In this document: positions 37,086 to 39,771 of the stretch, piece after piece
How positions within the stretch are numbered: position 1 is the first letter of the stretch
Layout of the letters: each line of letters begins with the position of its first letter
Source: Sulfurimonadaceae bacterium
Lineage (GTDB): Bacteria > Campylobacterota > Campylobacteria > Campylobacterales > Sulfurimonadaceae
Direction of reading: 5' to 3'
Length of the DNA stretch: 64,000 nucleotides
NCBI GenBank assembly: GCA_041553195.1
Contig: JBFEJN010000004.1
Coordinates: 3,036-67,035 of the forward strand
Notes under the pieces: model-generated
Database searches by the model: none
Seen by the model: the letters and a program-made list of their open reading frames with translations, nothing else
Told to the model about the DNA's origin: nothing
Made by a program: the position numbers and the translations under genes

Positions 37086-38222
37086 GTGTACGTTTTGTTT
37101 AAGATTTTCGCTGTACTCACACTGGTTTTTTTGCTCAATGGCTGTGCCGAAAAGATGTTGACAGTGAACCTGACAGATGAAAGTACAACAAAAGGTCATT
37201 TTGTCTCTTTCGGTGACCTGAAAGGGTGGCAAAATGAGGACCATACCGAAGCCTTGCGTCTCTTAAATGCAGCCTGCCTTTCCGGACGCCTGCCGCCATC
37301 ATTGTCACAGCTCTGTTCTTTGTCTCAAGACACAGCCAATGCCAGAGAATTTTTTGAGACCCATTTCCACCCTTTTATGCTGGCAAGTGAAACGGGCGAT
37401 GAACGTCTGTTGACAGGCTATTATGAACCGCAATTCCAAGGCTCTTTGCAACCAGGTCCTAATTATCCTTACCCGCTCTATAAACGTCCGAAAGATATCG
37501 TCAATATCGAACTCGCTTCCGTCTATACGGACCTTGAAAACCGCAGGTTCTATGGACGACTGGAAGGTAAGAGAGTCGTACCTTACTACTCCAGACATGA
37601 GATCAACGAAGGCAGGTTAAATGAAAAGCCGTTGTGTTACCTGAAAAGTGATATTGACCGTTTCTTTCTGCAGGTTCAGGGTTCGGGCAGGATCATACTG
37701 GAGAATAACGAAACGATCTTTGTCGGGTATGACGGTCAAAACGGTCACCCCTACCGATCAATCGGCAAAGCCCTTGTTGAAAGCGGCGCCATTGCGCAGG
37801 ATGAAATCTCGCTACAGAGTATCCGTCTGTGGCTCAACAACCATCCTGATGACACCAAAAAGGTGTTGGAAAGCAACCCGAGCTTTGTCTTTTTCGATAA
37901 ACGGACCAAAGCAGCATCCGGCGCTATGGGCATTGAGTTGACCGCTATGCGGAGTGTGGCGGTCGATAAAAGCAAAATACCGCTGGGATACCCGCTTTTT
38001 CTATCGGCTGTGAACCCTCTCAACGGCAGTGAACTTGACCGAATCGTCTACGCACAAGACACGGGAGGTGCCATAAAGGGTCAGGTGAGGGCAGATCTGT
38101 TCTGCGGCTCCGGCAAAAAAGCCGAAGCGCTGGCGGGCGGACTGCGGTCACCGTTACAGCTTTATCTTTTAATCCCTGACAAGATGACAGAACTAATCTC
38201 AAAATCATCCTCACTTCGCTAA
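37086..38222 (+). CDS. mltA: Membrane-bound lytic murein transglycosylase A
   Basis: Lipobox LNGC, TGYYEP, FFLQVQGSG, NPSFVFF, QDTGGAIKG, DLF. Confidence 0.92.
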   Translation: MYVLFKIFAVLTLVFLLNGCAEKMLTVNLTDESTTKGHFVSFGDLKGWQNEDHTEALRLLNAACLSGRLPPSLSQLCSLSQDTANAREFFETHFHPFMLASETGDERLLTGYYEPQFQGSLQPGPNYPYPLYKRPKDIVNIELASVYTDLENRRFYGRLEGKRVVPYYSRHEINEGRLNEKPLCYLKSDIDRFFLQVQGSGRIILENNETIFVGYDGQNGHPYRSIGKALVESGAIAQDEISLQSIRLWLNNHPDDTKKVLESNPSFVFFDKRTKAASGAMGIELTAMRSVAVDKSKIPLGYPLFLSAVNPLNGSELDRIVYAQDTGGAIKGQVRADLFCGSGKKAEALAGGLRSPLQLYLLIPDKMTELISKSSSLR

Positions 38223-38231
38223 AATGCAGCA

Positions 38232-38801
38232 ATGAACAATTCACTTGAAAAATTTAACCGTCTTGTCGATGCCCTGGAAGAACTGCCGACTGTCGGGCAG
38301 AAGTCTGCGACCCGTCTTGCCTACCATATGGTCATGAAAGATAACTTTTCTGCGCTCAAGATAGCCCATGCCATCGAGGATGCTCTCGGAACGCTTAGAA
38401 AGTGTATTTCCTGCGGCGGTATGAGTGAAGATGAACTCTGCTATATCTGTTCAAACGAGAGCCGTAATCATGAAGTCCTCTGTATTGTTGAAACGGCAAA
38501 AGATATTTTGACGATAGAAGAGAACGGTCTGTTTGACGGCCGCTATTTTGTATTGGACTCTATGGACGAGTTTACGATCACCCATCTTCAGGAGCTGGTC
38601 GCCAGCGGTATCACCGAAGTCCTTTTCGCCTTGACACCTTCTATCGCAAATGATGCCGTCATTTTATATATTGAGGACAAACTCCAGGCGTATGATGTGA
38701 TGTTTACCCGTATCGCCCAGGGTGTTCCGACAGGGGTGAGTCTGGAAAACATCGACATGCTGTCGCTCTCACGTGCTCTCGAAGACAGGGTTAAAATATG
38801 A
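38232..38801 (+). CDS. recR: Recombination protein RecR
   Basis: LPTVGQKSATRLA, C4 zinc finger, Toprim domain, TRIAQGVP.G. Confidence 0.93.
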   Translation: MNNSLEKFNRLVDALEELPTVGQKSATRLAYHMVMKDNFSALKIAHAIEDALGTLRKCISCGGMSEDELCYICSNESRNHEVLCIVETAKDILTIEENGLFDGRYFVLDSMDEFTITHLQELVASGITEVLFALTPSIANDAVILYIEDKLQAYDVMFTRIAQGVPTGVSLENIDMLSLSRALEDRVKI

Positions 38802-39268
38802 TATTTCGTACTCTTCTTACTGTGAGTATCATTGTCTTCACCGGTTGTTCCACGATGGGGCTGAAAAGTGATTCGGTGGGGGTAGAAACCAAAGAGTTCG
38901 GACAGTGCATTGCCAATACAAAAGAGGGCCCCCGTTTCAATAAGAAAAAGGTGACCTTTTACTGTGCAGACAACAGGGTTCTGCTTGGCGACGTGTATGA
39001 AAAAGAGGGTGTAGAATACATCGACAGTGCAATTTTGAGCAAACGTGACGGCAAATATGTCGTCACAGATAAAAAGCGCGTACGTTTTGTCCGGGGTTTT
39101 CATTCAGTTTGTCAGTTGCAACCGATACAAGGTGAGGGCGATAAAAAAATAAAACGCTTCTATTTCGATCAGAAATTAAAAGAGTGCCGTCCGTTTGAAT
39201 GGAACGGAAAAGGTGGTTTTGTCCCTTTTAAAAATGTTGATGAGTGCGAGCAGTACTGTCATGATTAG
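38798..39268 (+). CDS. Lipoprotein with C-terminal BPTI/Kunitz-like domain
   Basis: Lipobox FTGC; C-x6-G...RFYFD...C..F.W.G...F....C...C aligns to Kunitz spacing. Confidence 0.75.
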   Translation: MIFRTLLTVSIIVFTGCSTMGLKSDSVGVETKEFGQCIANTKEGPRFNKKKVTFYCADNRVLLGDVYEKEGVEYIDSAILSKRDGKYVVTDKKRVRFVRGFHSVCQLQPIQGEGDKKIKRFYFDQKLKECRPFEWNGKGGFVPFKNVDECEQYCHD

Positions 39269-39279
39269 AGGTGTCTGAG

Positions 39280-39771
39280 ATGTTTGGCTTTTTTCGAGAT
39301 TGGTGGAAGAAACAGGACCGGATTGTCTATATTCGCATACGAAACAACACGATAACGTTTTATCATTATCCACACGGTGTAGAGTATGAAGAAGATGCTA
39401 TTCTAGCAGTGCGACATAGCGGCAGTAAAAGTGTTGTTACAGCAGTCGGAAAAGCTGTTTTTACGCTCAAGGAGAATGACAAGTCTGTCGTGTATGAACC
39501 ATTTAACCCTTTCACGTATGAAGATCCTGAAAACTTTACACTGGCAGAAAAACTTATTCGAGCACTGATTACATCGGCACCTGAGTTTAAATATACGATA
39601 GTTTCGCCTAGAGTCATTGTCCACCCGGATAAGACCTATATCAGCAAAATGGAAGAAGAGGCCTATAGAGAGCTTGCTTTGAGTGCGGGAGCACGCGAAG
39701 CGGTTGTGTATGTTGGCAACAAACTGCAACCGGAAGAGTTTGAGCGGGTGATGAATCTAAAACATCAATAG
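39280..39771 (+). CDS. Short MreB-like protein (N-terminal lobe only)
   Basis: AVGK, PF....NF..AEKL, SPRVIVHP, EEEAYRELALSAGAR resemble the MreB N-terminal half. Confidence 0.6.
   Translation: MFGFFRDWWKKQDRIVYIRIRNNTITFYHYPHGVEYEEDAILAVRHSGSKSVVTAVGKAVFTLKENDKSVVYEPFNPFTYEDPENFTLAEKLIRALITSAPEFKYTIVSPRVIVHPDKTYISKMEEEAYRELALSAGAREAVVYVGNKLQPEEFERVMNLKHQ

Follow-up and report, generated by a model that had tools for sequence, protein, structure and literature searches.

A Kunitz protein of sulfur-oxidizing bacteria, real, well conserved and membrane-anchored, defines what is, as far as could be found, the first four-cysteine clade of a known bacterial Kunitz lipoprotein family. The gene lies directly downstream of recR in the window (the whole 64,000-nucleotide stretch of Sulfurimonadaceae DNA that was analyzed), and its product joins an N-terminal beta domain to a C-terminal Kunitz domain from which one disulfide and the trypsin-binding residues appear to have been lost in one ancestral step. 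We put at about 0.5 the probability that the protein is now a re-purposed, tethered Kunitz binder that no longer works as a trypsin-type inhibitor.

The coding evidence gathered at this locus concerns the forward strand (the Pfam match, 33 homologues and dN/dS values of 0.03-0.27), where a 156-codon open reading frame begins at the first possible start codon 3′ of an in-frame stop (Table 1). As the preliminary description had claimed, the gene overlaps the recR stop codon: the stop and the ATG of the lipoprotein share the tetranucleotide ATGA at 38798-38801. The signal region reads M-I-F-R, then a hydrophobic stretch, then the lipobox F-T-G-C17. A lipobox was scored as present under the pattern [LVI]-x-[GAS]-C, with F-T-G-C in the window's protein and L-S-G-C as the family consensus. 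Cys17 (codon 38846-38848) is the predicted lipid anchor; it and Gly16 are each at least 90% conserved in the homologue alignment. GC content is 0.43 in the Kunitz gene vs. 0.465 in the window, and an NCBIfam search with the 156-residue protein returned nothing.

Table 1. Features of the Kunitz locus, in positions of the window
Feature	Position	Strand	Evidence
mltA, lytic transglycosylase A lipoprotein	37086-38222	+	Pfam MltA and 3D domains
recR, directly upstream of the Kunitz gene	38232-38801	+	Pfam RecR domains
Antisense open reading frame, 171 aa	38588-39103	-	
Whole coding sequence, 156-aa two-domain Kunitz lipoprotein, stop included	38798-39268	+	Open reading frame list, translation; 33 homologues
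Signal peptide and lipobox, residues 1-17	38798-38848	+	Read from sequence
All-beta domain, residues 18-103	38849-39106	+	AlphaFold2 model
Kunitz/BPTI domain, residues 104-154	39107-39259	+	Pfam, PDB sequence matches, fold search
Counterpart of the protease-binding loop, BPTI 12-19, G-E-G-D-K-K-I-K	39131-39154	+	Gapless register; clade position table
Secondary loop W35-N36-G37-K38; Lys138 for Cys38, Asn for canonical Gly36	39200-39211	+	
ORF166, 166-aa reading frame, downstream	39271-39771	+	Weak MreB N-terminal similarity

The C-terminal domain is a Kunitz domain by profile, register and predicted fold. Pfam Kunitz_BPTI (PF00014) aligns to it over profile positions 1-52 of 53 at 40.5 bits (E 3.1e-10), where the curated gathering cut-off is 21 bits. 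When all six frames of the entire 2.35-Mb genome were searched with this profile, only this locus matched (42.1 bits, E 2.6e-10), and the same search of 14 control genomes gave no match. Every match in a PDB sequence search with the domain was a Kunitz protein. HMMER alignments to dendrotoxins place it in gapless register with BPTI numbering from Cys5 to position 38, followed by a single one-residue gap between positions 38 and 51 (cysteine spacing 8/15/7/11/3), in agreement with the preliminary description, in which about 51 C-terminal residues aligned to BPTI almost without gaps. Its assignment of individual residues can likewise be read off the sequence. C105, C130, C150 and C154 correspond to BPTI Cys5, 30, 51 and 55; G114 (39137-39139) occupies position 14, D115 (39140-39142) is P1 and K116 is P1′; and N136-G137-K138 are positions 36-38, with the codon of Lys138 at 39209-39211. 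The framework of six cysteines (5-55, 14-38, 30-51) is therefore incomplete, with Gly at 14 and Lys at 38, and homology together with the invariance of the four remaining cysteines points to a connectivity of 5-55 plus 30-51. An AlphaFold2 model of the whole protein, computed from an alignment of 33 sequences, gives the Kunitz part a hairpin (strands 117-124 and 129-136) and a C-terminal helix (147-154) at modest confidence (pLDDT 48-76). Structural searches with this part returned Kunitz chains only, both by VIA-align (Z 5.0-6.1, rmsd 2.0-2.5 Å, 41-45 residues) and by Foldseek (TM on target 0.5-0.79). A Kunitz profile search and a structure prediction, both put forward earlier as checks, each returned a Kunitz domain.

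Homologues of the protein share its four-cysteine pattern. A search of 5.8 billion proteins yielded 33 homologues of 137-163 aa with 57-84% identity; those that carry a name belong to Sulfurimonadaceae or Campylobacterota MAGs, and NCBI calls two of the 33 "BPTI/Kunitz ... domain-containing protein". C37, C56, C105, C130, C150, C154 and G114 are invariant in their alignment. Adding distant members gave a set of 45 distinct four-cysteine domains, all from Sulfurimonadaceae or metagenome contigs and representing at least three genera, in which Gly14 and the four-cysteine pattern lacking Cys14 and Cys38 are universal (45/45) and the four cysteines, Gly14, Trp35, Gly37, Phe45 and Asp49 are invariant. 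The Kunitz part shows dN/dS of 0.03-0.27 (Nei-Gojobori; 0.034 in the least saturated pair), which indicates purifying selection and not decay. This survey, together with the single change on the tree described below, upholds the proposal that Cys14 and Cys38 were lost together from a domain that is folded and non-canonical.

Kunitz domains are widespread in bacteria, and the earlier premise that they are mainly animal needs qualifying, as it understates a large bacterial branch. A single motif, W-[SG]-G-[KCR]-x-G-[FIV]-V-P-F, run over 185,579 species genomes, gave 274 confirmed Kunitz stretches in many phyla, including Bacteroidota (the most), Gammaproteobacteria, Marinimicrobia, Syntrophaceae, the candidate phyla radiation (CPR) and one Nanoarchaeota MAG. 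Among 55 domains parsed from the scan, 43 are canonical six-cysteine domains and 12 are without Cys14 and Cys38. All 12 come from Sulfurimonadaceae or from other Campylobacterota, with some records labelled no more precisely than Helicobacteraceae, Campylobacterales or Campylobacterota.

The four-cysteine domains differ from canonical bacterial domains at the positions that define a trypsin-type reactive site. P1′ (position 16) is Lys, Gln or Glu in 40/45 four-cysteine domains (K18, Q12, E10) vs. Ala or Gly in 50/51 canonical ones (A44, G6), position 36 is Ser, His or Asn in 42/45 (S26, H10, N6) vs. Gly in 51/51, and the Pro that mostly occupies P3 (position 13) in canonical domains has been lost. 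In the window's protein, D115, K116 and N136 stand where the determinants of MEROPS family I2 call for a P1 Lys/Arg or other S1-fitting residue, a P1′ Ala/Gly and Gly36-Gly37. P1 itself is mixed in the four-cysteine set (D29, K5, E3, N2, I2, T2, S1, Q1): Asp is confined to the main subclade, other lineages have K, T, I, E or Q, and the g7 and P0038 lineages are non-acidic (K, T, I or Q). Canonical bacterial domains are also mixed at P1 (R12, K12, D6, F5, E5, M4, Q3, N3, Y1), and because 11/51 are acidic, an acidic P1 is not special to the four-cysteine clade, nor is it unusual, as had been supposed. The most variable positions in the clade are loop positions 13, 15-17, 34 and 38, the last being variable among the 45 domains, and positions 6, 28, 31, 32 and 49 become strongly conserved and may contribute to an interface with the N-terminal domain; lower entropy outside the loop is partly expected, given that the clade spans a narrower taxonomic range than the canonical domains it is compared with.

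Phylogeny suggests that the 14-38 bridge was lost once, after the N-terminal domain had been gained. Three proteins (P0036, P0041 and P0057) combine the N-terminal domain with a six-cysteine Kunitz domain (P1 Q, R and R, respectively); they were found in none of the family's species genomes, where the best identity was 46%. In a careful maximum-likelihood tree of 50 two-domain proteins, unrooted and with the two trait columns removed, one branch with support of 99/95 splits the 47 four-cysteine rows from the 3 six-cysteine rows. A single change between four and six cysteines is recovered in 100% of bootstrap trees, and a quick tree agrees. Parsimony on this tree, with the six-cysteine intermediates and a six-cysteine outgroup, places the gain of the N-terminal domain first and one loss of Cys14-Cys38 second; that the change was a loss and not a gain is suggested by outgroup parsimony on an unrooted tree. 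Because the four-cysteine clade branches from six-cysteine bacterial two-domain forms and has the bacterial 11-residue spacing, the loss appears to be convergent with that in animal proteins.

We propose that the protein descends from a canonical bacterial Kunitz lipoprotein that would have been a trypsin-type inhibitor. The N-terminal beta domain would have been added to it, and one ancestor would then have lost the Cys14-Cys38 bridge and fixed Gly14. Alongside the loss of the bridge, Arg would have given way mostly to Asp at P1, Ala to Lys, Gln or Glu at P1′ and Gly to Ser, His or Asn at position 36, and the P3 Pro would have disappeared. The fold-defining core (Cys5-55, Cys30-51, Gly12, the aromatics at 21-23, Phe33, Trp35, Gly37 and Phe45) has stayed under strong purifying selection.

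The N-terminal domain is predicted with confidence as a six-stranded, all-beta unit when modelled alone (AlphaFold2, pLDDT 87, pTM 0.77). It contains the two further cysteines noted in the preliminary description, Cys37 (38906-38908) and Cys56 (38963-38965), both invariant in the 33 homologues and expected to pair with each other. No Pfam family matches it at E up to 0.1, its model finds no clear counterpart among PDB structures (top E of 0.54 in Foldseek, top Z of 3.1 in VIA), an ESM Atlas search gave no usable match, and its profile, run against 1.84 billion representatives, is matched over its full length by proteins of 151-160 aa only. Profile-profile comparison (hhalign) aligns it with repeats of META-domain lipoproteins at 96.3% probability (E 1.8e-9, 63 columns, both cysteines aligned), and hmmsearch of the whole library finds six META-type proteins (E 2.5e-6 to 3.7e-4), each with at least two full-length repeats. 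The repeat consensus is C-x-F-A-G-T-G-A-T-L-A-F-D-E-K-R-x-N-[FY]-T-C ... L-L-G-[DE]. On this profile evidence the N-terminal domain is homologous to the repeats of META-domain lipoproteins. A Cys-pair beta module of about 75 residues, for which Pfam has no model, occurs in 2-4 copies in P0046-P0048, P0056, P0058 and P0062, and long metagenome lipoproteins with the repeated module also carry META, DUF4377, YscW or DUF333. We rejected P0039, P0040, P0042-45, P0049-55, P0059-61 and P0063-65 as relatives of the domain, their scores being sums of short matches below 12 bits in repetitive sequence. There is no support for an MliC/PliC-like lysozyme inhibitor: Pfam gives no match at E up to 0.1, and PliC, which appears in the fold search with the whole-protein model at Z 2.5 and rmsd 6.2 Å, is absent from the domain-only list.

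Downstream of recR lies a variable slot for envelope proteins. In the window, mltA, recR, the Kunitz gene and ORF166 form a tight run headed by mltA. The Kunitz gene directly follows recR in 13 related genomes from at least four genera of Sulfurimonadaceae, with mltA upstream in 10/13 of the compared loci. In genera g3 and g6, the slot is filled by an 82-89-aa lipoprotein with a canonical six-cysteine Kunitz domain (P1 Arg, P1′ Ala/Gly, Gly36), which has the G-x-V-P-F signature and the shortened 38-51 segment of the window's domain and, given its place in the same slot, is a positional orthologue of the window's gene. In G077, a complete genome of the window's own genus without the Kunitz gene, the ORF166 homologue comes straight after recR. 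Since contents differ among genomes, the slot is variable and the Kunitz gene accessory. At two Kunitz-less loci (L114 and L116, genera g2 and g4), recR overlaps a gene for outer-membrane phospholipase A1 (Pfam PLA1, 217 bits).

Distribution within the family is patchy, with the Kunitz gene in 30/353 species genomes. The four-cysteine two-domain form occurs in g1 (10/15 genomes), g7 (7/17) and g12 (1/1), the short canonical form in g3 (4/4) and g6 (4/5), and a form of about 284 aa with an N-terminal canonical Kunitz domain in g17 (3/66). The gene was found in 0/194 genomes of g2 and in none of 277 genomes of 13 other Campylobacterota families. An example of the g17 form (G097, locus L003, 919-1773, minus strand) is an exported protein of 284 aa, encoded at another locus, with six cysteines and P1 Lys in its Kunitz domain; its C-terminal part, about 190 residues long, has no Pfam match. 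In genome G006, a 48-bp tandem repeat (3.9 copies, 98% matches; L020, 4695-4881) at the 3′ terminus of recR, ahead of the Kunitz gene, extends the open frame to 225 aa.

Neighboring genes offer no obvious partner. ORF166 starts two bases past the Kunitz gene and is weakly similar to MreB over the N-terminal third of the latter (25.1 bits in Pfam, slightly below the cut-off of 27, and E 3.6e-6 in NCBIfam), and it is conserved at about 54% identity within the window's own genus, G077 included. As G077 keeps ORF166 without the Kunitz gene, and ORF166 is present in the genus with or without it, ORF166 is probably not a functional partner. No link of the protein to recR or mltA beyond co-transcription is evident.

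On function, we favor a re-purposed, non-canonical binder over an inhibitor of shifted specificity. The large P1′ residue, the loss of Gly36 and the dendrotoxins as best PDB matches lean toward non-canonical binding, and among BPTI variants, those with acidic P1 residues give the weakest complexes with trypsin and chymotrypsin (PMC3407930, citing Helland et al. 1999). The product would be an exported, lipid-anchored, two-domain protein whose Kunitz head serves as a folded, membrane-tethered binding unit. This head would no longer block trypsin-like proteases; its remodelled loop surface may instead recognize another envelope or extracellular partner, with the N-terminal domain as a second module or a spacer. 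Several points count against re-purposing, among them the modest model confidence of the Kunitz part, the taxonomic narrowness of the clade and the unrooted tree behind the polarity. Four-cysteine Kunitz proteins can still inhibit trypsin, as do anntoxin and the C51A/C59A mutant of LmKTT-1a (PMC3721222), and loop positions that vary may equally well be the pattern of true inhibitors evolving against proteases. A more specific version, which we regard as unlikely, is that the Kunitz inhibitor was converted, in parallel to dendrotoxins and conkunitzins, to a non-protease ligand of a channel, porin, receptor or other envelope protein, and that the N-terminal domain would be the founding characterized member of a new family of small disulfide-bonded beta modules shared with META-domain lipoproteins.

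A search of the own genome for proteases found no exported S1A or S1B protease, only an HtrA-like one, which favors the binder reading. The candidates considered as endogenous protease partners, an HtrA-like S1 protease and a signal-less 363-aa protease, were set aside; neither is encoded near the Kunitz gene. The latter (L108, 1432-2523, plus strand, on contig C34 of the own genome) is a trypsin-fold (Trypsin_2) protein without signal peptide that has a zinc-ribbon-like C-terminal motif (Cys-x2-Cys ... Cys-x2-Cys), and its gene follows one for an uncharacterized 442-aa protein.

A possible but less probable reading than re-purposing is that the domain remains a standard-mechanism serine-protease inhibitor, its specificity shifted so that Asp, Glu or Asn at P1 would be aimed at Glu/Asp-specific S1 endopeptidases made by competitors or grazers, or possibly at HtrA of the same cell; tethered in the envelope, the protein would give ecotin-like protection. 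The positional orthologues look classical, Gly12, Ile18, Arg20 and Gly37 are kept, and the contact-loop positions vary among lineages as they do in arms-race inhibitors. The acidic P1 of some canonical domains further suggests that acid-directed inhibitors of the Kunitz type may be ordinary in bacteria, and the inhibitory activity kept by anntoxin is in line with this reading. Against it stand the P1′ residues of the four-cysteine clade, the loss of both Gly36 and the bracing disulfide, the lack of an acid-specific S1 protease encoded in the own genome, and the g7 and P0038 lineages with their non-acidic P1. That the classical determinants are gone, and that some genomes of the same genus have no copy (G077), would also fit an ex-inhibitor domain drifting after loss of function, yet decay of this kind is very improbable given dN/dS of 0.03-0.27, residues invariant across 45 distinct sequences from at least three genera, and no frameshift or stop in any copy. 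Animal toxins being the best matches of solved structure, a recent animal-to-bacterium transfer or contamination of the assembly also has to be weighed; its probability is negligible, and we reject it on synteny, which holds in 13 genomes, with the gene translationally coupled to recR. The bacterial lipobox, the bacterial-type 11-residue spacing, the G-x-V-P-F signature common to 274 bacterial stretches and a GC content close to that of the window (0.43 vs. 0.465) speak against an animal origin as well.

Bacterial Kunitz domains are abundant in genome databases and almost untouched experimentally. We found no paper linking Kunitz domains with Sulfurimonas in a literature search, and experimental work on a "bacterial Kunitz" turned up in a single paper, which deals with F6W77 of Acinetobacter baumannii (PMC11511053). 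The recR slot provides a natural series, from a six-cysteine lipoprotein with P1 Arg through a six-cysteine two-domain form to a four-cysteine two-domain form with remodelled loop, which spans one genomic position and traces a clear evolutionary path that starts from canonical orthologues there. Comparing its members could reveal how a classical inhibitor scaffold takes on a different function and how a Kunitz fold copes without the 14-38 bridge, in a case separate from those in animals. The locus also flags an unnamed, confidently folding beta domain without clear solved relative. Practical weight is modest, since the hosts are uncultured sediment sulfur oxidizers and the NCBI label already reads Kunitz-containing.

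Among known proteins, conkunitzin-S1 (PDB 1Y62/2CA7) and anntoxin (2KCR) share the four-cysteine framework of the window's domain, with disulfides 5-55 and 30-51 only (PMC3721222), and both are significant sequence matches (E 6.6e-6 and 4.5e-6, respectively). Unlike the window's protein, they are secreted single-domain toxins without a lipid anchor, the former a K+ channel blocker and the latter a neurotoxin that also inhibits trypsin. In the PDB, the top sequence matches are alpha-DTX (1DTX) and DTX-I (1DEM), at E 7e-8 and about 40% identity. Dendrotoxins, homologous to Kunitz inhibitors, block Kv1 channels and are not known to inhibit proteases. In the printed alignments they resemble the four-cysteine clade in a large P1′ and W-S-G at 35-37; unlike the window's protein, they keep three disulfides and are snake-venom proteins, and the likeness is one of sequence. 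BPTI and MEROPS family I2 belong to the same Pfam family and share the predicted fold, whereas the window's domain is without Cys14-Cys38, P1 Lys/Arg, P1′ Ala/Gly and Gly36. F6W77, whose Kunitz domains are likewise reported from a bacterial genome, has five classical six-cysteine domains, P1 Arg and anticoagulant activity, and is not a lipoprotein of the window's architecture (PMC11511053). Closest in kind are the canonical bacterial Kunitz lipoproteins (the short forms of sister genera and PF00014 proteins of Bacteroidota, Gammaproteobacteria, Marinimicrobia and others), which are lipobox-anchored, 33-39% identical to the window's domain, and share with it G-x-V-P-F and a 38-51 segment one residue shorter. 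These canonical forms have six cysteines, P1 Arg, P1′ Ala/Gly, Gly36 and no N-terminal domain, whereas the window's protein has four cysteines, Gly14, P1 Asp, P1′ Lys, Asn36 and an 86-residue beta domain.
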